DNA from: a virus
Taxonomy: Duplodnaviria > Heunggongvirae > Uroviricota > Caudoviricetes
DNA: 46,053 nt
IMG/VR virus record: IMGVR_UViG_2541047806_000008
Strand: one strand, 5' to 3'
The notes beneath the pieces were generated by a model. That model made no database searches. It was not told where the DNA came from and saw nothing but the letters and a program-made list of their open reading frames with translations. Of the stretch, positions 3,265 through 46,053 are shown piece by piece. The first letter of the stretch is position 1, and each line of letters opens with the position of its first letter. Position numbers and translations under genes: made by a program.

Positions 3265-4459
<1,195 letters not shown>

Positions 4460-31760: not shown

Positions 31761-31836
31761 GAAGTCACCGGAGTTGTTCAAGCTCCAATGGCATGATTAT
31801 GGCTGGTTGATTATTGGAAATCAAATGTGCTGAAAA

Positions 31837-32581: not shown

Positions 32582-33190
32582 TTATTGCAACAGATTCTGA
32601 CGGAAATATGGTAACACACGACTCCACTTATCATCCTGCCACGGTTGGAATTTTACATGCGCCGTTTCTCTGGCAAGGATTTCTCGCGCCCTGTTGAGTA
32701 TCCGAGGATATTCTTGTTCGATTGAAGTGAATCTACCTGCTTCGCGATGCTCTGCGACCTGAAGAAGGGGCGTAACGTTCTGGCAGGCGGTTAACATCGT
32801 ATCACTTGCTCGCCATAACCAGGCGAGTGTGCAAAGTTCGTTATCAGTGAATTGTTTTGTGATTGGGGATTGTTGAACTTCTCGATCGAGAATATCCAGA
32901 ACCCAGCGGCGGAATTCTTTGGCCACAGGAGTACGAGCAAACATGGCGATCAAATGGGCTCCGCGAAGGCTAAATACTCGAGACTCCTGCATTCCACGAG
33001 GGGTGGTCACTTTGACCACCCTTGTCATCATATCTGTGAATTCATCTGAGTGCCGAGAGTAAATGCGCTGAACTGCTTTATCGTCCGCATATTCCAGTGC
33101 TAAACCAACTTCAGTGGCAGTAAGCCAAATTCTGTTATTGTGGCAAATCGGGGTAAACGTCGTTTTGTGGAATGCTAATTGAGTAGTCAT
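32582..33190 (-). CDS. Bro-N domain protein (phage antirepressor-like)
   Basis: 202 aa; N-terminal region (FTPICHNNRIWLTATEVGLALEYADDKAVQRIYSRH ... RVFSLRGAHLIAMFARTPVAKEFRRWV) fits the Bro-N / KilA-N-like pattern. Confidence 0.6.
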   Translation of the reverse strand: MTTQLAFHKTTFTPICHNNRIWLTATEVGLALEYADDKAVQRIYSRHSDEFTDMMTRVVKVTTPRGMQESRVFSLRGAHLIAMFARTPVAKEFRRWVLDILDREVQQSPITKQFTDNELCTLAWLWRASDTMLTACQNVTPLLQVAEHREAGRFTSIEQEYPRILNRAREILARETAHVKFQPWQDDKWSRVLPYFRQNLLQ

Positions 33191-33609
33191 AGTATCACCT
33201 CATCAGGTTAACCATCACCACCAACGACGCCAATCGACTGGTGGTGAACTGTGTAAGGTTGGCGTAACCGGCTACTCAAACCCGGCGCTTCCGAAGAAGC
33301 CCTCACACAGCCCACCATAATTTGGGCATAGCCGTGCTTAGCGCACAAAAAAACCGCTTAACGCGGTATGCGTTGAGTAGTATCCCGGGACGCCAATCCC
33401 GTGTGCCGATTTTGCGGCAACGCACAGAATATAGCGCCGGATAAATCATGTCGTCAACCCCAGTAAATGGACACCATGATGATCACATCCATAGCTGCTA
33501 CAACAGTTACAACTACCTCAGGCCAAAACATAACGATTTCCATATCACCTTTAGCCGCCAGACGAATAGAGACTCCCAATTCTGGCTGTCGAAGTAAAAC
33601 ACCGAATGT

Positions 33610-33694: not shown

Positions 33695-34002
33695 ACCCCA
33701 CCACCGGGTGTTCAGGCCGACAGTAACTATATTATTCCCTACTGATTTTTGAAAATCAAAGGTCTTTATACGTCACACGAGAGCAAATATTTCCGAAGAA
33801 GAAACCTTTCACCTTGAAAGGATAAAGAGTTCATTTCATAAATTGAAATATTCAATAAGAATATTGCAAAAAATGAAATTATTTACTAGCGAGTCTATCT
33901 AACTGATAATTATGAAGATTGTAAGCGGTAGCAATCACCCGCATACACATTGAACAGGATTTAATACAAAACGTCTTAAATTGTCCGTAAGGAATAGCAC
34001 GA

Positions 34003-35753: not shown

Positions 35754-36056
35754 TCACAGCAAGTTTAAGTTCATATCTCCATACACTGCCAACACTCGTT
35801 TCATCGCGGCACTCTGGCGACACTCCTTGAAAATCAGATTCGTGCTCACCTTTCCTTCCCGTTCTTCCCTGGTAGCGAACCGGTAATACACCGTTCGCCA
35901 GACCTTACCATCAACGACCAAGATTCCTGCCCGTGCCATTTTAGCCGCAGCCTGATTTATACTGGTTACTGTTGCGCCTGTTACCGCAGCAACGTCCTGC
36001 GCACAGAAGCTCTTATGCGTCCCCAGGTAATGAATAATTGCCTCTTTGCCCGTCAT
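35754..36056 (-). CDS. ren: Ren protein
   Basis: 100 aa; matches lambda Ren as recalled (MTGKEAIIHYLGTHKSFCAQDVAAVTGATVTSINQAAAKMARAGILVVDGKVWRTVYYRFATREEREGK...) except for a divergent C-terminal tail. Confidence 0.8.
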   Translation of the reverse strand: MTGKEAIIHYLGTHKSFCAQDVAAVTGATVTSINQAAAKMARAGILVVDGKVWRTVYYRFATREEREGKVSTNLIFKECRQSAAMKRVLAVYGDMNLNLL

Positions 36057-36754
36057 ACAGTTGCTCCTTTCAGTCCGAACTTCGCTTTGATTTCTGCGAT
36101 CTTCGCCAGAGCCTGTGCACGATTTAGAGGTCTACCGCCCATGACAGGAAGTTGTTTTACTGGTTCAGGTATCGCCTCACCACGGTTAATTCGCGCGGTC
36201 ATACAAGTCAGTTCATCGGCAGCCTTGCGCCGTAATTCCGCATCAGTAAGCGCATTGGCCCGCATGTTCTGATACAGGTTGGTAACCAGCCAGTAGTGCG
36301 CGTTTGATTTCCACGGATAAGACTCTGCATCCGGATACAGGCCACGCTTCCGGCAATACTCGTAAACCATATCAACCAGCTCGCTGGTGTTTGGTAGTCC
36401 GGCAATAACGGATGCTTCTTCCCGGCACCAGGCTACAAACTGTCCGGGGGATGGCAGGAATGGTCGATTCTGCCGACGGGCTACGCGCATTCCTGCGTTA
36501 ACCTGTTCCATCGTGGTGATCCCGTTTTCCCGGAAAGCCAGAACCCACTGGCGGCGGATTTCGTTCAGTTCGTTCTGCTCACGATTAGCCAGGCTCGCCG
36601 GGAAAGTTGCCAGTAACTGGCTGAACACACCGTTGATGATCTGCGCTACCTGCTGTACCTGTGGCTTTTCGTCATACTGTTCCGGCATGTTGTTGGCGAT
36701 CCGACGCATCTGCTCACGGTCAAAGTTAACCATCTGTGCGGCGATGTTTTTCAT
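36053..36754 (-). CDS. P: Replication protein P (helicase loader)
   Basis: 233 aa; near-identical to lambda P as recalled. Confidence 0.9.
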   Translation of the reverse strand: MKNIAAQMVNFDREQMRRIANNMPEQYDEKPQVQQVAQIINGVFSQLLATFPASLANREQNELNEIRRQWVLAFRENGITTMEQVNAGMRVARRQNRPFLPSPGQFVAWCREEASVIAGLPNTSELVDMVYEYCRKRGLYPDAESYPWKSNAHYWLVTNLYQNMRANALTDAELRRKAADELTCMTARINRGEAIPEPVKQLPVMGGRPLNRAQALAKIAEIKAKFGLKGATV

Positions 36755-37680
36755 AGATCCACCCCGTAAATCCAGTCAGTGTTTGTCAGGTCGAGTTTTG
36801 GTTTGCCGACTGTCACGCCAGCCTGTTGCTTGTTCCGGTTGATTTCGAGCTGGGTCCACTTGTCGCGGAGTTTGGCCGGACTCAGCACGTTACCGGACCA
36901 GAAGTTGTCCTGGCAGGCCCAGCGGAACAGCACGCACATGTCGCGGTGGTTACGTCCGTCACGTTCACGCATCAGGCGGATATCGTTAGCCCACCCAGCA
37001 AAATTCGGTTTTCTGGCTGATGGTGCGATAGTCTTCACCATGTCAAACATCCACTCTGCGGCGGTCAGGTCTTCTGCTGTCCCCCACTTGCTGCCGCTCT
37101 GAATTGCAGCATCCGGTTTCACCACAGGAAGATCGTTTTCTGGCTGGTCAGAGGATTCGCCAGAATTCTCGGACGAAAAAGGTTTTATATTGTCTTTTGT
37201 TAGTTTGTCTTTTGTGTTTACCTGATTCGGGTAAACGCCTTTACCTGATTTGGGTAAACTTTTCTTACCTGATTCAGGTAAATTTACCTCTTTCAGGTAA
37301 ACTTTATTTTTCTTACCTGATTCGGGTAATGTTGACCATTCACTGACCACATTATTAATGCCGATATTCCGCCCGCTCTGAATAAGAATCCCACGCTTTA
37401 CCAGAACGCTTTTTGCAGCAGAACACTTGTGCGGCAATATCCCGGTCAATTCGGAAAGTTGCTCGTTGCTCACCCAATCCAGTTTTTTATTAAAGCCATA
37501 TGTTTTGCGCATGACAGCCAGGAAGACCAGAAGCTGGTGCTGTGTTAATCCGGCCAGCATCACAGCTTCCAGCAACTCATTTGCAATGCGCGTATAACCA
37601 TCATCGAGATCTGCCACGCGCGGCTCCTTTTGTGCCGCATCCGGCACTGGAAAATTGAATATCTCAGCAGTGTTTGCCAT
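36751..37680 (-). CDS. O: Replication initiator O
   Basis: Start placed at MANTAEIFNF (ATG 37678-37680, GGGAGG upstream); N-terminal domain lambda O-like (VADLDDGYTRIANELLEA), C-terminal domain lambda O-like; contains the iterons. Confidence 0.85.
   Translation of the reverse strand: MANTAEIFNFPVPDAAQKEPRVADLDDGYTRIANELLEAVMLAGLTQHQLLVFLAVMRKTYGFNKKLDWVSNEQLSELTGILPHKCSAAKSVLVKRGILIQSGRNIGINNVVSEWSTLPESGKKNKVYLKEVNLPESGKKSLPKSGKGVYPNQVNTKDKLTKDNIKPFSSENSGESSDQPENDLPVVKPDAAIQSGSKWGTAEDLTAAEWMFDMVKTIAPSARKPNFAGWANDIRLMRERDGRNHRDMCVLFRWACQDNFWSGNVLSPAKLRDKWTQLEINRNKQQAGVTVGKPKLDLTNTDWIYGVDL
37140..37335. repeat. Replication origin: 4-5 iterons (TTACCTGATTCGGGTAAA-like) with adjacent AT-rich segment, inside O
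   Basis: Iteron copies at about 37216, 37240, 37264, 37284 and 37312; AT-rich stretch at about 37160-37205. Confidence 0.7.
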
Positions 37681-37766
37681 AATTCCTCCCGCAATGAGTG
37701 TGTTACGATTTGCACCTGAAAGTCGGTTCTGTTCCAGCAGACCGGCTTTCGCCATTTCTGAACCTG

Positions 37767-38306
37767 TCATATCGCCCCCAGCATGGTAGTAACCATCGCC
37801 ATCAATGGACCAGCCAGATCTGGGTCCACACGAAACATCGATACAATACCTTCACTAATTTCCTTCAGTTTCTGGTGGCGTGGTGCGTTGAGAATGACAG
37901 CCTGTTTTGCCTCACTGAGTTCCTTTTCCATTTCAGCCAACCTAGCCATGAAGCTATCCTGCTCAACCAGGTAACCGCGATATTCCAGCGGTAGTACCGC
38001 CAGAATTGCCGGGGTCAGTTCACGCACGTTATTTCGGTATTTTTCAGAATCGAATTTGTTATCGAGGAAGCGGAACAGCTTCTGGCGTGCACGGCTGACA
38101 TCATCAGGGAAATCGATGGTGCCGCCGCCCTGCTCCCGATACTCATTCACAATGAGTGTGGCAACGACATCCTGATTATCTACAGCCGACCAGGCGCGGA
38201 CGGCATCACGGATTTTTTCGTGGCCTGGCACCTGTTTTGTTTGAGAACGATTTATCACCGCAGTCGGGCTAAATCCGCTAGTCTGTTGGTATGGAAGTGG
38301 TTGCAT
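37767..38306 (-). CDS. CII-like regulatory protein (longer than lambda CII)
   Basis: 179-aa ORF in the cII position between cro and O; not lambda CII; assignment by position and general resemblance only. Confidence 0.4.
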   Translation of the reverse strand: MQPLPYQQTSGFSPTAVINRSQTKQVPGHEKIRDAVRAWSAVDNQDVVATLIVNEYREQGGGTIDFPDDVSRARQKLFRFLDNKFDSEKYRNNVRELTPAILAVLPLEYRGYLVEQDSFMARLAEMEKELSEAKQAVILNAPRHQKLKEISEGIVSMFRVDPDLAGPLMAMVTTMLGAI

Positions 38307-38375
38307 AATTGACTCCTTTAGTTTGAATTGACTGTTAAGTTGATTGCTTATTGTTAAAGAGCGTGAAATGGAAAT

Positions 38376-38606
38376 TTAAGCTGCGTTCTTTTCGGTGTGT
38401 GGAAACAACTTCGGAAGATCCGGGCGAATCTGGTATGCCTTCACTACTCCACCAGTAGCCGTAACAATGCTGCCGACATGTTCAGGGGATACCTTTGCTT
38501 TGTTGTGAAGCCACTTATAGACGGCCTGCTGTGAAACTTCGCAAGCAGCGCCCAGTTTCTTTTGTGAACCAACGATATTGATCGCTGTTTTGATAGCTGG
38601 GTTCAT
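38376..38606 (-). CDS. Cro-like HTH repressor
   Basis: 76-aa ORF divergent from cI across an operator-rich intergenic region; HTH-like segment KKLGAACEVSQQAVYKWL. Confidence 0.6.
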   Translation of the reverse strand: MNPAIKTAINIVGSQKKLGAACEVSQQAVYKWLHNKAKVSPEHVGSIVTATGGVVKAYQIRPDLPKLFPHTEKNAA

Positions 38607-38710
38607 AACAACCTCCGTGGTTAATTTGAATCAAGATTAAAACTATGGTTGTTTTTAGTCAACAACCATTTTCGTTTGATGGAATAAAACCTTGGTTGTA
38701 CATTTGGACT
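38607..38710. promoter_or_regulatory. OR region: pR (minus strand; -35 TTGACT, 17-nt spacer, -10 TAATCT) and operators with GGTTGT/ACAACC half-sites
   Basis: On the minus strand TTGACT-N17-TAATCT (plus coordinates 38635-38662); inverted repeat ATGGTTGTT-N7-AACAACCAT at 38644-38668; further half-sites at about 38607 and 38693. Confidence 0.55.
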
Positions 38711-39400
38711 ATGAAAACAACACTCTCAGAAAGACTTAAAGAAGCCAGATTAGCGCGAGGCCTTACACAAAAGGCGCTTGGGGATTTGGTCGGGGTTAGC
38801 CAGGCTGCTATTCAGAAAATCGAAACAGGGAAAGCTAATCAAACAACTAAAATCGTGGAGATCGCGAACGCTTTGGGTGTGCGCGCAGAATGGTTATCTT
38901 CTGGCGTTGGAAATATGTCAGACAGTACAGTGCAACCAATACAATCAACTGTCAGCCATTCCAAATACTTCAAGATTGACGTTCTTGATATAGAAGTCAG
39001 TGCTGGGCCGGGAGTCATCAACCGTGAGTTTGTAGAAGTTCTACGCTCGGTTGAGTACTCGTTTGACGATGCTCGTCACATGTTCGATGGTAGGAAGGCG
39101 GAAAATATCCGCATCATTAACGTGCGTGGTGACAGCATGTCAGGAACGATCGAACCAGGTGATCTGCTGTTCGTTGATATCACAGTTAAATCTTTCGACG
39201 GTGATGGTATCTATGCGTTTCTGTACGACGACACAGCCCATGTAAAGCGCCTGCAAATGATGAAGGATAAGCTGCTGGTCATCTCTGATAACAAAAGCTA
39301 CTCACCGTGGGACCCGATCGAGAAAGACGAGATGAACCGGGTGTTCATCTTCGGTAAGGTTATTGGGAGCATGCCGCAGACGTACAGGAAGCATGGTTAA
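38711..39400 (+). CDS. CI-type repressor (N-terminal HTH, C-terminal S24 LexA-like autopeptidase)
   Basis: Start placed at MKTTLSERLKEARLARGLTQKALGDLVGVSQAAIQKIE; C-terminal region has the S24-type motifs (VRGDSM ... KRL); the track ORF is extended upstream. Confidence 0.85.
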   Translation: MKTTLSERLKEARLARGLTQKALGDLVGVSQAAIQKIETGKANQTTKIVEIANALGVRAEWLSSGVGNMSDSTVQPIQSTVSHSKYFKIDVLDIEVSAGPGVINREFVEVLRSVEYSFDDARHMFDGRKAENIRIINVRGDSMSGTIEPGDLLFVDITVKSFDGDGIYAFLYDDTAHVKRLQMMKDKLLVISDNKSYSPWDPIEKDEMNRVFIFGKVIGSMPQTYRKHG

Positions 39401-39481
39401 TAATTAGCCTGTAGCTTTTTAAGGCACACTCTTTTCAAGAATATTAAATAGAACACTATATGGCATAAACAAGGACTTAGG

Positions 39482-39955
39482 ATGGAAAAGCCTAGCTTCC
39501 CACCTCTTCTTACAGCAGGATTTCATGATATGGATAGTGATGGCATCAAGTCTCTTTGTGTCGACACCTTCCCAAAATCCGTTAGAAGAAGTATGCTATA
39601 CTGTAATTTTATACAGCTTATTGAGCAATTTAAACTTGTTAATCAGCAGTGTCTATGTTTCTCTGAAGTGTGGATCGATGGTTCATTCACTACAGAGAAA
39701 CCTGAACCTGATGACATAGATATACTCGTGGTCGTCGATTATTTGGCCCTAAACTCTTTGCCAAACACGCTGATGCCATTGGTCAGCTCATTGTTAAATA
39801 GAGATTTTATTAAAGAAAACTACAGCATTGACGTTCTTTTGCTGCCTGAAAATCATCCAGAAATCGATTATAGTGAAAGGCGAAGTTACTGGAGAGGGTG
39901 GTTTGGTTTTGATCGGAAGGAGAATCCTAAAGGCCTCGTGAGGGTAATGTTATGA
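39482..39955 (+). CDS. Nucleotidyltransferase-fold protein (Pol beta superfamily-like GS...DxD motif), first gene of rex-position operon
   Basis: 157 aa; motif WIDGSFTTEKPEPDDIDILVVVD fits the G[GS]-x9-13-DxD signature; AAGGAC RBS; relatively AT-rich. Confidence 0.45.
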   Translation: MEKPSFPPLLTAGFHDMDSDGIKSLCVDTFPKSVRRSMLYCNFIQLIEQFKLVNQQCLCFSEVWIDGSFTTEKPEPDDIDILVVVDYLALNSLPNTLMPLVSSLLNRDFIKENYSIDVLLLPENHPEIDYSERRSYWRGWFGFDRKENPKGLVRVML

Positions 39956-40884
39956 GCGAAGAAAAAACATTCAACTCCCTCAAGGAGCGAATTGCGTTCA
40001 TTCAACGCGATGTGGATCTGCTTGCTCAAAATAAGGGGAGATCATTTGCTGATGACATTATATTTAGATCACTTGACTCCCATCTGAGCGATCTCCGAGA
40101 GAGACAACGTGCAATCGATAACCAACATCCTTTACGTGATTTCATGGAGTTGAGATTAAAAGGTGTTTTGGTCGATTTCGGGTCTATTCCGTTAGATATT
40201 CTATCTGTAATTTCAGGTAATCTCGCATCCCTTGTACAGAAAGCAGTTTACCGACTTGGATCTGGGAAAGATTCTAGTCGTGTGCCGATTGATGTTAAAA
40301 AATCATTAGACATGAGATTGGCAGACTTGCGTCCAGGTTCGACGAAGTTAGGTGTTACTTTTTCTACTGGTTCTTGCGAGCTCATCGAAACAGTATCCAG
40401 TCATGCTGTTAAGGAGATTTTTGCACTACTCTCATCCATTGATGAAGAAACATTCACGGCTAAAATTGCCGAAATTGGTTCGCAATCAACAGCTAACCTA
40501 AAAAACATCATAAATGAGTGCGAAAAATATAGTCTTAACTTTGATCTTACTTGGATTGGACCTTTAAGTGATGGTACCAGACAAGTGTCAATTTCTTCAG
40601 AAGATATAAAAAAACTGAATGCTCGCTTAGCTTTAACGAAGGTCATTCAGCTACCGGATGAGCATATATCAGGCGAACTTGCTATTTTATCCATGTACGG
40701 GAAATTGGAGATTGCAAGCGAGCTTGGAAAAATAAAGGCTTCTTATCCGATTGATATGTTAGGAGAAATTCAAAGTAAATATAAAGTTGGTGAACGAATA
40801 TCGCTCGTAGTAAGCGTTTCTGAGATTCACAATGAAAGATTAGGAACATCACGACGTAACTACATGGTTAAAAAAATCGAATAG
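39952..40884 (+). CDS. Hypothetical protein (310 aa), second gene of rex-position operon
   Basis: Start ATG overlaps the upstream stop (ATGA at 39952-39955); no TM segment evident; no family recognised. Confidence 0.45.
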   Translation: MSEEKTFNSLKERIAFIQRDVDLLAQNKGRSFADDIIFRSLDSHLSDLRERQRAIDNQHPLRDFMELRLKGVLVDFGSIPLDILSVISGNLASLVQKAVYRLGSGKDSSRVPIDVKKSLDMRLADLRPGSTKLGVTFSTGSCELIETVSSHAVKEIFALLSSIDEETFTAKIAEIGSQSTANLKNIINECEKYSLNFDLTWIGPLSDGTRQVSISSEDIKKLNARLALTKVIQLPDEHISGELAILSMYGKLEIASELGKIKASYPIDMLGEIQSKYKVGERISLVVSVSEIHNERLGTSRRNYMVKKIE

Positions 40885-40892
40885 TGATGCTA

Positions 40893-40919
40893 CCCGGCCA
40901 CCGTGCCGGGTTTTCTTTT
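40893..40919 (+). terminator. Intrinsic terminator ending the cI / rex-position operon
   Basis: CCCGGC-CACCGT-GCCGGG followed by TTTTCTTTT on the plus strand, 9 nt after the stop. Confidence 0.6.
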
Positions 40920-41009
40920 GCCCTCCCCTCATCACACACACCGTTAAAAAAACCACCATAACCTCGCTTCAGTTATCGCTATGCGATTCAAGTCACAAAA
41001 TAAATCCAT

Positions 41010-41100
41010 CCTAAATACAACCAGTTATATCTAAAACAACCAATAAAACAACTTTTGTTGTTGACGATAAAACAACTATAGTTTTAAATAAGTTCATCGC
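41010..41100 (+). promoter_or_regulatory. OL / pL region (candidate -35 TTGACG 41061-41066, -10 about 41084-41090) with ACAAC half-site operators
   Basis: GTTGTTGACGATAAAACAACTATAGTTTTAAATAAG closely resembles the pR segment GTTGTTGACTAAAAACAACCATAGTTTTAATCTTG; inverted repeat AACAAC-TTTT-GTTGTT at about 41047-41062. Confidence 0.4.
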
Positions 41101-41282
41101 AACAACACAACGATACGGCAACTACCTGATTCACCGTTGCGATGACCGCTTAGATCCGCAGCTTGAATTTCAGCAGGCTTCGGGGAGTGCGAGGGATGAA
41201 ACGGACGCGTGAACGTCGGTGTGACCAGCTGAAATCAACTCAACATTTCATACCTTAGTCGCTTCAACGAGGCGGCTTAGTT

Positions 41283-41573
41283 ATGACAACCGGCGGCCAT
41301 CCACCGCCTGAATACGCGCAGAAGTCTTTATATGTTCAGCAGCCCAGCTTACGGGCAGGAGTTTTTATGGTTCATCAACATTACGGAACGCAGACCGTTA
41401 ATCGCGGTGCGGTCATGCCAGGAATGCTGGTCAAACGCAAAGATGGTACCTGGACTGCATCAGCTAATTTACGCGGACGACTTTATCTGCATCGCGGCAT
41501 TGAGCGCACTTATACCCGTGACTTGCTCGTGGAAGTTTTTCTCGACGGACGCGGCAACGGTCTGAATCACTAA
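41283..41573 (+). CDS. Hypothetical early-left protein (kil position); likely true start at 41367
   Basis: 96-aa track ORF; an internal ATG at 41367 has a GGAG RBS (68 aa from MVHQHYGTQTVNRG...); not Arg-rich, so not an N-like antiterminator. Confidence 0.3.
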   Translation: MTTGGHPPPEYAQKSLYVQQPSLRAGVFMVHQHYGTQTVNRGAVMPGMLVKRKDGTWTASANLRGRLYLHRGIERTYTRDLLVEVFLDGRGNGLNH

Positions 41574-41648
41574 TCCCCTTTCCTGTTTTCCGAATCAGCC
41601 TGGCATTCCGCGGGCGATTTTTTCACAGCCATTTTCAGGAGTTCAGCC

Positions 41649-41945
41649 ATGAACGCTTATTACATTCAGGATCGTCTTGAGGCTCAGAGCTGGGCGCGTC
41701 ACTACCAGCAGATCGCCCGTGAAGAGAAAGAGGCAGAACTGGCAGACGACATGGAAAAAGGCCTGCCCCAGCACCTGTTTGAATCGCTATGCATCGATCA
41801 TTTGCAACGCCACGGGGCCAGCAAAAAAGCCATTACCCGTGCGTTTGATGACGATGTTGAGTTTCAGGAGCGCATGGCAGAACACATCCGGTACATGGTT
41901 GAAACCATTGCTCACCACCAGGTTGATATTGATTCAGAGGTATAA
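41649..41945 (+). CDS. gam: Gam (RecBCD inhibitor), short form
   Basis: 98 aa; matches the lambda Gam short form as recalled ([21 protein letters not shown]...[10 protein letters not shown]). Confidence 0.85.
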
Positions 41946-41950
41946 AACGG

Positions 41951-42736
41951 ATGAGTACAGCACTCGCAACGCTGGCAGGGAAGCTGGCTGAACGTGTCGG
42001 CATGGATTCTGTCGACCCACAGGAACTGATCACCACTCTTCGCCAGACGGCATTTAAAGGTGATGCCAGCGATGCGCAGTTCATCGCATTACTGATCGTT
42101 GCCAACCAGTACGGCCTTAATCCATGGACGAAAGAAATTTACGCCTTTCCTGATAAGCAGAATGGCATCGTTCCGGTGGTGGGCGTTGATGGCTGGTCCC
42201 GCATCATCAATGAAAACCAGCAGTTTGATGGTATGGACTTTGAGCAGGACAATGAATCCTGCACATGCCGGATTTACCGCAAGGACCGCAATCATCCGAT
42301 CTGCGTTACCGAGTGGATGGATGAATGCCGCCGCGAACCATTCAAAACCCGCGAAGGCAGAGAAATCACCGGACCGTGGCAGTCGCATCCCAAACGGATG
42401 TTACGTCATAAAGCCATGATTCAGTGTGCCCGTCTGGCCTTCGGATTTGCTGGTATCTATGACAAGGATGAAGCCGAGCGCATTGTCGAAAATACCGCAT
42501 ACACTGCAGAACGTCAGCCGGAACGCGACATCACTCCGGTTAACGATGAAACCATGCAGGAGATTAACACTCTGCTGATCGCCCTGGATAAAACATGGGA
42601 TGACGACTTATTGCCGCTCTGTTCCCAGATATTTCGCCGCGACATTCGCGCATCGTCAGAACTGACACAGGCCGAAGCAGTGAAAGCTCTTGGATTCCTG
42701 AAACAGAAAGCCACTGAGCAGAAGGTGGCAGCATGA
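41951..42736 (+). CDS. bet: Bet single-strand annealing protein
   Basis: 261 aa; near-identical to lambda Bet as recalled. Confidence 0.95.
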
Positions 42737-43413
42737 CACCGGACATTATCCTGCAGCGTACCGGGATCGACGTGAGAGCTGTCGAACAGGGGGATGATGC
42801 ATGGCACAAATTACGGCTCGGCGTCATCACCGCTTCAGAAGTTCACAACGTGATAGCAAAGCCCCGCTCAGGAAAGAAGTGGCCTGACATGAAAATGTCC
42901 TACTTCCACACCCTGCTGGCTGAGGTTTGCACCGGTGTGGCTCCGGAAGTTAATGCTAAGGCGCTGGCCTGGGGAAAACAGTACGAGAACGACGCCAGAG
43001 CCCTGTTTGAGTTTACTTCCGGCGTGAATGTTACTGAATCCCCGATCATCTATCGCGACGAAAGTATGCGCACCGCCTGCTCTCCCGATGGTTTATGCAG
43101 TGACGGCAACGGCCTTGAACTGAAATGCCCGTTTACCTCCCGGGATTTCATGAAATTCCGGCTCGGTGGTTTCGAGGCCATAAAGTCGGCTTACATGGCC
43201 CAGGTGCAGTACAGCATGTGGGTGACGCGAAAAGATGCCTGGTACTTTGCCAACTATGACCCACGAATGAAGCGTGAAGGCCTGCATTATGTCGTGGTTG
43301 AGCGGGATGAAAATTACATGGCGAGTTTTGACGAGATGGTGCCGGAGTTCATCGAAAAAATGGACGAGGCACTGGCTGAAATTGGTTTTGTATTTGGGGA
43401 GCAATGGCGATGA
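42733..43413 (+). CDS. exo: Exo 5-prime to 3-prime exonuclease
   Basis: 226 aa; near-identical to lambda Exo as recalled. Confidence 0.95.
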
Positions 43414-43592
43414 CGCATCCTCACGATAATATCCGGGTAGGCGCGATCACTTTCGTCTACTCCATTACAAAGCGAGGCTGGGTATTTCCCGGCCTTTCTG
43501 TTATCAGAAATCCCCTGAAAGCACAGCGGCTGGCTGAGAAGATAAATAATAAACGGGAGGCGGTATGCACAAAGCATCTCCTGTTGAGTTAA
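43404..43592 (+). CDS. Hypothetical small protein (lambda b-region-like small ORF)
   Basis: 62-aa ORF in the exo-xis interval; call is positional. Confidence 0.3.
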
Positions 43593-43756
43593 GAACGAGT
43601 ATTGAGATGGCACATAGCCTTGCTCAAATTGGAGTCAGGTTTGTGCCAATACCAGTAGAAACAGACGAAGAATTTCATACGTTAGCCGCATCCCTTTCAC
43701 AAAAGCTGGAAATGATGGTGGCGAAAGCAGAAGCAGATGAGAGAGACCCGGTATGA
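43565..43756 (+). CDS. Hypothetical small protein
   Basis: 63-aa ORF in the exo-xis interval. Confidence 0.3.
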   Translation: MHKASPVELRTSIEMAHSLAQIGVRFVPIPVETDEEFHTLAASLSQKLEMMVAKAEADERDPV

Positions 43757-44054
43757 CAGCCACGGAATGCATTTTTCTGGCAGCGGGCTTCATATTCTGT
43801 GTGCTTATGCTTGCCGACATGGGACTTGTTCAATGACACCTCAGCAGGAAAACGCCCTTCGCAGCATTGCCCGTCAGGCTAATTCTGAAATCAAAAAAGC
43901 CAGACAGCAGTTTCCGGATAAAAACGTCGATGACATTTGCCGTAGCGTACTGAAGAAGCACCGTGAAACGGTAACGCTGATGGGATTCACACCGACTCAT
44001 TTAAGCCTGGCGATCGGCATGTTAAACGGCGTCTTTAAGGAACGGTTAACATGA
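43737..44054 (+). CDS. Hypothetical protein (start uncertain; possibly at internal MTPQQENAL)
   Basis: 105-aa track ORF in the exo-xis interval. Confidence 0.3.
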   Translation: MRETRYDSHGMHFSGSGLHILCAYACRHGTCSMTPQQENALRSIARQANSEIKKARQQFPDKNVDDICRSVLKKHRETVTLMGFTPTHLSLAIGMLNGVFKERLT

Positions 44055-44146
44055 AAAGCAAAATCATCAGGGAGCTACAGGCTCCTTTTTTATTGTTCGC
44101 ATTCATCCTCAAGCGTATTAACCAACAATTCAGGGATTAATGGAAG

Positions 44147-44365
44147 ATGGCAGACATCATTGATTCAGCATCAGAAATCGAAGAATTACAGCGCAATACA
44201 GCAATAAAAATGCGTCGTCTGAACTACCAGACTGTATCCGCAACTCATTGTTGTGAGTGTGGCGATCCGATAGATGAGCGAAGACGCCTGGCTGTTCAGG
44301 GTTGTCGGACTTGTGCAAGTTGCCAGGAGGAGATCGAACTTAAGAACAAACAATGGGGACTATGA
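44147..44365 (+). CDS. TraR/DksA-family C4 zinc-finger protein
   Basis: 72 aa with CxxC-x17-CxxC (CCECGDPIDERRRLAVQGCRTCASC); a TraR-like ORF is common in the lambda exo-xis region. Confidence 0.6.
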   Translation: MADIIDSASEIEELQRNTAIKMRRLNYQTVSATHCCECGDPIDERRRLAVQGCRTCASCQEEIELKNKQWGL

Positions 44366-44412
44366 TGGCCTCAAAGCAGCAAATTTCAACATCGTCCAAC
44401 TGAGGTGTAAAA

Positions 44413-44691
44413 ATGTTCAGAATCATTTTTCCTAACACCTGGTACGTCGACCACCACGGCACTCCCTGCAAAATCCTGCGTTCTACCCACAACAAAGTTC
44501 ACTACATCCGAAAAGGCAGAACATGTATCGCCAGCATGTTCCGCTTTAATCATGACTTTGAACCTGTGAATAAAGCTGATGCAGATCGGATAGCAGAAGA
44601 GATCGAAACGGCAGAACACATTAAGAAGTTACGTGACATGCGTTCAAAAAGCAGAGGTAACCATGGAATCATACAGCCTCACACTCGATGA
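44413..44691 (+). CDS. Hypothetical protein
   Basis: 92-aa ORF upstream of xis. Confidence 0.3.
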   Translation: MFRIIFPNTWYVDHHGTPCKILRSTHNKVHYIRKGRTCIASMFRFNHDFEPVNKADADRIAEEIETAEHIKKLRDMRSKSRGNHGIIQPHTR

Positions 44692-45034
44692 GGCCTGTCA
44701 GTTTCTTAAGATATCCAGACCAACCGCCACCAACTGGATACGAACAGGCCGCCTACAGGCAACACGTAAAGATCCAACCAAGCCAAAATCTCCTTACCTC
44801 ACAACACGGCAAGCCTGCATTGCGGCGCTTCAGTCTCCGCTGCATACTGTCCAGGTGAGCGCGGGTGATGGCATAACAGAGGAAAGAAAATGTCACTCTT
44901 CCGCAGAAATGAAATATGGTATGCCTCGTATTCGCTCCCGGGCGGGAAACGAATTAAGGAATCTCTTGGCACAAAGGACAAGCGGCAAGCTCAGGAGTTG
45001 CACGACAAGCGAAAAGCAGAACTCTGGCGAGTAG
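44663..45034 (+). CDS. xis: Excisionase-like HTH protein (AlpA/Xis-like), unusually extended and overlapping int
   Basis: [31 protein letters not shown]... is HTH-like; the open frame continues about 145 nt into the int coding region, so possibly read-through or a pseudogene. Confidence 0.45.
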
Positions 45035-46053
45035 AAAAGCTAGGGGATTTACCTGATGTCACTTTTGAAGAGGCCTGCCTAAGATGGCTTGAGGAAAAAG
45101 CTGATAAAAAATCTCTCGATTCAGATAAAAGCCGGATTGAGTTCTGGCTTGAACATTTTGAGGGTATAAGGCTTAAAGATATCTCGGAGGCAAAGATTTA
45201 CTCTGCTGTAAGCAGAATGCATAACAGAAAGACGAAAGAAATATGGAAACAGAAAGTTCAGGCCGCCATCAGGAAAGGTAAAGAACTGCCTGTTTATGAA
45301 CCAAAGCCAGTATCAACTCAGACAAAGGCAAAGCATCTTGCCATGATAAAGGCCATTCTCCGTGCTGCAGAACGCGACTGGAAGTGGCTGGAAAAAGCGC
45401 CTGTCATCAAGATACCAGCGGTCAGAAACAAGCGAGTCAGATGGCTGGAAAAGGAGGAAGCAAAACGCCTTATTGATGAGTGCCCCGAACCACTGAAATC
45501 TGTCGTCAAGTTTGCGCTGGCAACTGGTCTGAGAAAGTCGAACATCATAAATCTGGAATGGCAACAAATCGACATGCAGCGACGAGTTGCCTGGGTGAAT
45601 CCAGAAGAGAGCAAATCAAACCGCGCCATTGGTGTGGCGCTGAACGATACCGCCTGTAAAGTGTTGCGTGATCAAATAGGCAAGCATCACAAATGGGTGT
45701 TTGTACATACCAAGGCGGCTAAGCGAGCAGATGGAACATCAACGCCTGCGGTCAGGAAGATGCGCATCGACAGCAAGACATCATGGCTATCAGCTTGTCG
45801 TCGTGCAGGAATTGAAGATTTCCGTTTCCATGACCTCAGACACACCTGGGCAAGCTGGCTGATTCAGTCAGGCGTCCCATTATCAGTGCTTCAGGAAATG
45901 GGCGGATGGGAGTCCATAGAAATGGTTCGTAGGTATGCTCACCTTGCGCCTAATCATTTGACAGAGCATGCGAGGAAAATAGACGACATTTTTGGTGATA
46001 ATGTCCCAAATATGTCCCACTCTGGAATTATGGAGGATATAAAGAAGGCGTAA
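44890..46053 (+). CDS. int: Tyrosine integrase (IntD-like)
   Basis: 387 aa; C-terminal catalytic region with conserved R...HxxR...Y context ([17 protein letters not shown] ... RRYAHL); resembles DLP12 IntD as recalled; stop is the last codon of the window. Confidence 0.9.

Follow-up and report, generated by a model that had tools for sequence, protein, structure and literature searches.

A conserved structured RNA in the pL leader of DLP12-like prophages, a candidate early antitermination element

Organization of the leftward early operon

The window analysed here, a stretch of 46,053 nucleotides, belongs to a lambdoid prophage of the DLP12/Bievrevirus-like type, and its plus strand corresponds to the leftward direction of lambda. 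Across positions 40893-41660 the top matches are PhiR34_1, IdasGreatGrand, Turner, Perceval and 4A7, with identities of 90-98%. The leftward (pL) operon comprises, in this order, kil, gam, bet, exo, several small ORFs, a traR/dksA-like gene, xis and int (Table 1). The position between cI and pL is taken up by a DUF6932 nucleotidyltransferase-like ORF and an ORF of 310 aa (PHROGs 9194 and 6603); since other genes (SIR2, HipA-like, ASCH or lipoprotein) are found at this position in relatives, it is apparently a variable slot for cargo or defence genes, comparable to lambda rexAB. Between the cI-operon terminator and oL (40912-41030), about 110 nt are kept in the heteroimmune phages Perceval and 4A7 despite different adjoining operators.

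Table 1. Features of the early control region and the leftward operon. Positions are those of the window.
Feature	Position	Strand	Description
cro-cII spacer	38333-38385	minus	Exact rrn-type boxA CGCUCUUUAACAA (CGCTCTTTAACAA) at 38351-38363
cro	38376-38606	minus	YdaS-like
cI	about 38711-39400		Right after cro in listed gene order
Two cargo ORFs	39482-40884		Between cI and pL
cI-operon terminator	40892-40911		Upstream of pL and leader
pL	41061-41089	plus	TTGACG (41061-41066), 17-nt spacer, TTAAAT (41084-41089)
5' hairpin of pL transcript	41095-41144	plus	CAUCGCAAC / GUUGCGAUG, 9 bp, C-rich loop; first inverted repeat
B domain	41141-41246	plus	Structured RNA cassette, 106 nt; covariance model R2 127.5 bits
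Helix Ya	41147-49 with 41189-91	plus	Encloses Yb
Helix Yb	41156-65 with 41174-83	plus	
Yb apical loop	41166-41173	plus	AAUUUCAG; perfect complement of CUGAAAU (41229-41235), just 3' of Yc
Helix Yc	41192-97 with 41224-30	plus	Encloses Yd
Helix Yd	41201-06 with 41215-20	plus	
Arg-rich mini-ORF	41163 (TTG) or 41196 (ATG) to 41258	plus	20-31 codons; encodes MKRTRERRCDQLKSTQHFIP
Element C	41246-41330	plus	Hairpin 41257-41277, then UUAGUUAUGACAAC, then hairpin 41292-41308 (GGCGG CCAUCCA CCGCC); upstream of kil
kil	41367-41573	plus	FtsZ inhibitor family; whole-protein match to PHROG 294 (E 1e-37); PF27398 in homologues; good SD
Intrinsic terminator within pL operon	44069-44095	plus	GGAGCUACAGGCUCC then UUUUUUAUU; upstream of traR/dksA-like gene, xis and int
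int	44890-46053		Last gene of the pL operon order

An earlier note on this DNA placed pL at 41061-41090 and allowed that this placement might be wrong. Three observations show it to be correct. The 33-nt core of the promoter (GTTGTTGAC.A.AAAACAAC.ATAGTTTTAA), which is overlapped by operator half-sites of the AACAAC/GTTGTT type, is repeated in near-identical form as pR upstream of cro (minus strand, 38634-38672). The same core constitutes the pL of Salmonella phage UPF_BP1 (85% over 33 nt). Finally, in Perceval and 4A7 similarity drops across the operators and returns at about 41097, near the transcript start. The start of the transcript, CAUCG..ACA.CGA, is common to the put phages, phi80 and HK225.

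From the transcript start to kil, the first real gene, there are about 270 nt. Two starts, 41283 and 41367, had been considered for the small ORF that ends at 41573. The one at 41367 stands and defines kil as the first gene of the pL operon, whereas the one at 41283 is unsupported, since the polymorphism of 41283-41366 shows no codon periodicity even though this stretch is highly conserved. For the same reason, and because the frame ends differently in relatives, neither an upstream ORF at 41283-41366 (MTTGGHPPP...) nor a long Kil of 96 or 136 aa was accepted; the long Kil entries in the protein database that look divergent are frameshifted, and no long form is conserved. When the upstream peptide was compared by tblastn with 50,697 phage records, the only matches were 16 close relatives and nucleotide-level matches to the kil-proximal element.

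Both inverted repeats that had been noted in the leader are present where they were placed. The first, CATCGCAAC (41095-41103) with GTTGCGATG (41136-41144), forms a hairpin at the 5' end of the transcript, with a fold z-score of -2.6; this hairpin is lineage-specific, its 5' arm being replaced in CP-933P. The second, TTGAATTTCAGC (41163-41174) with GCTGAAATCAA (41228-41238), lies within the B domain described below. Closer to kil, element C was found by nhmmer upstream of kil in HK225, HK639, KO-TP1 and nine species genomes. In these other phages and genomes it lies downstream of an intrinsic terminator, and the pairing of its first hairpin is kept with different sequences. Together with 41331-41366, the run-up to the kil SD, element C makes up the least polymorphic part of the leader (41246-41366); it probably concerns kil itself. 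The conserved start of this stretch is ATGACAAYCGGCGGCCATCCACCGCC (translation MTTGGHPPP).

An intrinsic terminator is located between B and kil in the Scandinavium and type-2 loci (see below), and likewise ahead of kil in HK225, KO-TP1 and HK639. In the window lineage this pre-kil terminator stretch has been deleted, leaving a junction of CAACA with TTTCATACC, so that the nearest clear terminator is 2.9 kb downstream. The terminator at 44069-44095 is kept in four relatives, among them 4A7, Perceval and CP-933P. A terminator-like site between kil and gam is weak and not conserved.

Absence of N, nut and put

The leftward early operon contains neither an N gene nor a put RNA. In PHROG and Pfam searches of the leader ORFs, no family except Kil was detected, and thus no N; tblastn searches of the window and 14 related loci with phi80 N, HK225 gp41 and lambda N gave no credible match; and the RefSeq annotation of the relative 4A7 lists a Q-like protein but no N. 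With kil as the first gene, these searches bear out the claim that no N-like gene lies between pL and gam, and they, like the 4A7 annotation, lend no support to the alternative of a divergent N elsewhere. The earlier note had also seen no lambda-type boxA/boxB nut site by eye, and indeed no boxA occurs within the leader when up to two mismatches are allowed. An N/nut system requires boxA and boxB with a matching nutR; here the R-side boxA has no hairpin and is found in one R-side type only, and B has no second copy.

The search for put was based on a covariance model (R1) built from nine put RNAs (HK022 L and R, HK639, phiEt88 L and R, CobraSix, S9-5, PdC23 and UPF_BP1), in which 7 of the 15 pairs covary. 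Known and newly found put sites, which served as controls, scored 64-98 bits with this model, whereas the plus strand of the leader scored no more than 0 bits in both the window and contig L131, even with filters switched off. Rfam 15, which has no put family, gave no match in the leader at E values up to 10 when searched over 36000-46053 and contigs L131, L125 and L093. The put model also matched two Siccibacter colletis prophages at 98.5 bits upstream of kil (L113 1424-1496; L118 844-916), which extends put to another genus.

A conserved RNA structure in the leader

The earlier note reckoned with the possibility that the leader has no conserved structure. We identified a structured RNA cassette, the B domain, which begins about 50 nt into the pL transcript and consists of two stem-loop domains, Ya/Yb followed by Yc/Yd, abutting without a spacer. 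Covariation was tested with RNAalifold and pair counts on an alignment (A9) of 12 sequences, eight of them E. coli alleles, from three clades. Of its 264 cells in 22 pairs, 263 (99.6%) hold standard pairs. Both sides have changed in four pairs and 12 cells (A9 columns 18-41, 20-39, 21-38 and 65-76), a level of covariation that none of 500 shuffles reached and for which slid controls gave values of 0-2, on a base of only three clades and about five independent events. The single exception in A9 is the A at 41196 of the window itself, which gives A-C where all others have G-C. An E. coli allele outside A9 with GGG at 41196-41198 breaks one Yc pair, and the other polymorphic E. coli sites in B fall in loops and bulges (alignments read by eye). 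Nucleotide diversity (pi) in B is 0.028, as opposed to 0.058 at the third codon positions of kil and gam. Folding of the leader as a single sequence is no better than that of shuffles (z-scores of -0.08 to +1.0); this measure is not discriminating, because genuine put RNAs also come out near zero (-0.3 and -0.95).

The apical loop of Yb and the complementary tail 3' of Yc are invariant over the three clades except in contig L131, and the Yb stem varies. Loop and tail may pair to form a pseudoknot, a candidate that we infer from complementarity, since this particular pairing shows no covariation. A different model (X), in which the second inverted repeat closes B, was rejected: the repeat shows no covariation and the inner helix P2 fails, with 71-88% of cells paired. 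The RNAalifold model (Y) fits the variation better and was therefore preferred, the repeat being retained only as the possible loop-tail pseudoknot. Just 3' of the B domain (41236-41245), the pentamer TCAAC is repeated in tandem, with two copies in the window and three in several E. coli prophage alleles.

Distribution of B and exchange with putL and nutL-N

The leader stretch 41092-41262, which covers the 5' hairpin and B, is present in 2210 of 5426 complete E. coli genomes (about 41%), mostly at 95-99% identity, and is unannotated in all 2210. Among the prophages with B are DLP12/Bievrevirus-like phages, CP-933P of O157:H7 and Perceval of LF82. A diverged copy of the middle portion of this stretch was found in Scandinavium hiltneri in a search upstream of kil homologues that covered one genome per species. 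A pattern scan revealed a third clade, type 2, with ten IMG/VR contigs, to which a metagenome scan for further clades added a single contig. A covariance model of B (R2) detects exactly one copy per genome or locus, and its match in the leader is the sole one in the window. No second, R-side copy was found either by BLAST or with this model.

B is modular: it is preceded by at least 9 different pL/operator sets and is promoter-proximal in every locus found. In Scandinavium, element C and kil lie downstream of it at a distance of 1.1 kb, beyond one gene and an intrinsic terminator; in the type-2 contigs B is near the promoter and kil at least 1 kb downstream, past other genes. This arrangement ties B to the promoter and not to kil. 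Downstream of B, the type-2 and Scandinavium loci (L127 10365-10866; L125 862-1236) have a conserved, GC-rich stretch of about 400-500 nt in which no ORF is convincing.

Several uncultured relatives, known as contigs, carry B behind the leader of another phage. In contigs L129 and L136, pL, operators and 5' leader are those of HK639, and B then stands in place of the annotated putL. What contig L131 has in common with HK639 putL is the 5' leader and 45 nt of 3' flank, and about 117 nt have been exchanged for put. The identity of contigs L130 and L131 to phi80 extends over pL/oL and a further 107 nt of leader; next comes B, at the position of the annotated phi80 nutL boxA, nutL core and N. In UPF_BP1, conversely, putL directly follows a pL of the window type. 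On account of the swaps behind the HK639 and phi80 leaders, we regard B, putL and nutL-N as three alternatives in one slot, two of which are known early antitermination devices.

Comparison with known antitermination systems

The put RNA needs no phage protein; it works in cis on RNA polymerase and depends on the beta-prime zinc-binding domain (PMC9378689). Like the put sites of HK022 (putL and putR) and HK639 (putL), B is promoter-proximal in the pL leader and lies ahead of the terminators of the operon. It likewise consists of two abutting stem-loops of similar total size and is not accompanied by an antiterminator gene. The likeness is closest to HK639 put, which also exists as a single L copy and occupies the identical slot behind the HK639 pL and leader. 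In contrast to these similarities, no homology to put can be detected with the put model. The helices of B and its conserved nucleotides are different ones, and the possible loop-tail pseudoknot has no counterpart in put. A local resemblance exists between stem II of HK639 put (CGGGCUCAGGAAGAGCGG; CGGGCTCAGGAAGAGCGG, L003 34257-34275) and Yd of type 2 (CGGGCAAUGGAGAGCCGG; CGGGCAATGGAGAGCCGG, L131 about 3621-3640). The put model does not see it, and it could be due to chance, convergence or remote ancestry.

With the N-nut system of lambda and phi80, B shares the genomic slot (after the phi80 pL and 107 nt of leader in L130 and L131) and a similar length of leader before the first gene. Unlike lambda and phi80, the window lacks an N gene and a leader boxA/boxB, and its right operon contains no second site of this kind.

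The antitermination of rrn operons, which involves boxA and NusB, NusE, NusG, NusA and SuhB, finds its only likeness in the boxA of the cro-cII spacer, that is, in the right operon of one R-side type and outside B. No other exact boxA occurs in the window, and 13 of 14 positions in the spacer sequence CGCUCUUUAACAAU agree with the boxA region of rrn. The boxA is flanked by CGCAGCTTAAATTTC and AATCAACTTAACA, near-copies of the leader motifs at 41157-71 and 41233-45, which lie on either side of the core of B. The spacer has no structure and represents one of two R-side types, the other having an unrelated hairpin; boxA is absent from half of the relatives. A protection of pR transcripts mediated by boxA and host factors is possible, and it would not be general to the family. 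The operator of YdaT was considered as the source of the flanking motifs and rejected, as the exact match to TTGATTN6AATCAA is elsewhere. This match to the published operator of YdaT (the CII equivalent), at 31807-31824, coincides in part with a promoter-like sequence of the minus strand; a copy with one mismatch is found at 33742-33759. Also on the minus strand (33353-33457), upstream of the ORF at 32582-33190, a promoter-like sequence (TTGACG, 18 nt, TATATT) is followed 60 nt on by a terminator-like hairpin and seven T.

A proposed role for B and its alternatives

B is a single-copy, promoter-proximal RNA whose structure is conserved with covariation, which exchanges with both putL and nutL-N, and downstream of which there are terminators. 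Because it occupies the slot of the early antitermination device in related phages, it is a candidate new antiterminator RNA. We propose, at roughly even odds (a probability of about 0.5), that B is a cis-acting early antitermination element with a role like that of put that is not a homologue of put. For B, we infer from sequence comparison that it antiterminates, that it does so in cis and that no phage protein is needed. According to this proposal, B would be transcribed early and fold into Ya/Yb and Yc/Yd, possibly with the loop-tail pseudoknot, and would then act in cis, as put RNA does, on the very polymerase by which it was transcribed. That polymerase would read through downstream terminators, including that at 44069-44095, and this read-through would allow the traR/dksA-like gene, xis and int to be reached. 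We prefer antitermination to other functions because of position and comparison, namely the exchange with putL and nutL-N, the link to the promoter, the terminators downstream and the modularity of the element. The RNA-based put-like element suggested in the earlier note thus holds up as to position and probable role, given a structured, covarying RNA that swaps with putL and nutL-N, but not as to homology with put.

A stronger version of this proposal is tentative, and we would sooner bet against it than for it. It states that B is a self-sufficient antiterminator RNA, with a structure unrelated to that of put, which acts in cis by binding to E. coli RNA polymerase and modifying it. B would then be a third lambdoid solution beside N/nut and put, swapped into one leader slot, and, at about 41% of complete E. 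coli genomes, by far the commonest RNA solution.

Several points run counter to an antitermination role. With the pre-kil terminator deleted in the window lineage, no clear terminator comes before the one 2.9 kb downstream, and a promoter beyond 44069-44095 could serve xis and int instead. B has no second copy for the pR operon, where a boxA spacer or an unrelated hairpin is found. Moreover, a cassette in the nutL-N slot might equally bind an unrecognised protein. This last point leads to an alternative that we consider unlikely, in which B would not act alone but would be a nut-like site recruiting an antiterminator protein that cannot be recognised as such, either encoded elsewhere in the phage or provided by the host Nus factors, as at rrn. 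B is at the position of phi80 nutL, the GGUGUG that follows Yd resembles boxC and CGCUUAGA is weakly boxA-like (both read by eye), the immunity type of the window has an exact rrn-type boxA after cro, and unrelated N-like proteins in odd positions are known, for example Gp17 of mEp021 (PMC11893012). However, PHROG, Pfam, an Arg-run scan and tblastn revealed no N-like ORF, the single copy of B has no matching R site, and the boxA is missing in half of the relatives. Furthermore, the exchange between L131 and HK639 involves only about 117 nt and replaces put, an RNA that needs no phage protein.

An equally improbable alternative is that B is an element of the 5'-UTR that has nothing to do with processive antitermination, of which the operon would have no need. 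As such it could affect mRNA stability or processing, act as a Rho-dependent attenuator that silences the toxic kil, or regulate translation. In the window B is just 120 nt upstream of kil, its flanks are C-rich, G-poor and rut-like (read by eye), the stretch 41283-41366 beside the kil SD is the most constrained (pi about 0.002-0.02), and the terminator-like site between kil and gam is, as stated above, a poor one. These features would fit a function directed at kil, but in Scandinavium and type 2 B has stayed with the promoter, and at least 1 kb and other genes separate it from kil. Neither the specific exchange of B with two known antitermination devices nor the canonical terminators downstream of it would be expected for an element of this kind.

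The earlier note also stated that no Arg-rich N-like protein is encoded between cI and gam. This overlooked an Arg-rich mini-ORF in the leader (Table 1), yet the ORF is not conserved and has no match to any family. In Perceval and 4A7 it continues in frame into kil; in the Scandinavium and type-2 homologues GTG-TAA is found at its position and the ORF is lost. E. coli prophage alleles begin with ATG, GTG or, in one allele that has no start codon, GGG, and several frame-breaking indels occur. Comparable Arg-rich 12-mers number about 43 in the six-frame ORFs of the window. In view of the variable starts and indels, the GTG-TAA in relatives and the frequency of Arg-rich runs, we judge the mini-ORF at 41196-41258 to be non-functional as an N analogue. 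That it specifies a minimal N-like peptide binding a hairpin in its own coding region is very improbable despite the resemblance of RTRERRCD to the lambda N motif RRRERRAE, an SD-like GGAG 9 nt upstream and a GNRA-like Yd loop, because two of the three clades have lost the ORF and yet preserve the RNA structure via compensatory changes, homologues are lacking, and 20 residues do not accommodate the NusA- and polymerase-binding parts of N.

Implications

To our knowledge, RNA-only processive antitermination in phages is represented by essentially one family, put, in a few phages. A literature search by topic and by sequence string found no description of B (King 2011, on put-like RNAs, may hold an earlier mention), and a search on the regulation of Bievrevirus found no paper. 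According to a 2025 survey, lambdoid phages without N are merely supposed to use 'put-like' mechanisms (PMC12315714). The proposal that B is an early antitermination element is directly testable, since natural isogenic swaps exist, phi80 pL occurring with either nutL-N or B and HK639 pL with either putL or B. B would provide an annotation marker for a leader that is now unannotated in 2210 genomes. If the proposal is true, B would be a second, unrelated RNA with the job of put, making it possible to compare how nascent RNAs reprogram RNA polymerase, and it would explain the N-less early programme of a very common group of E. coli prophages.
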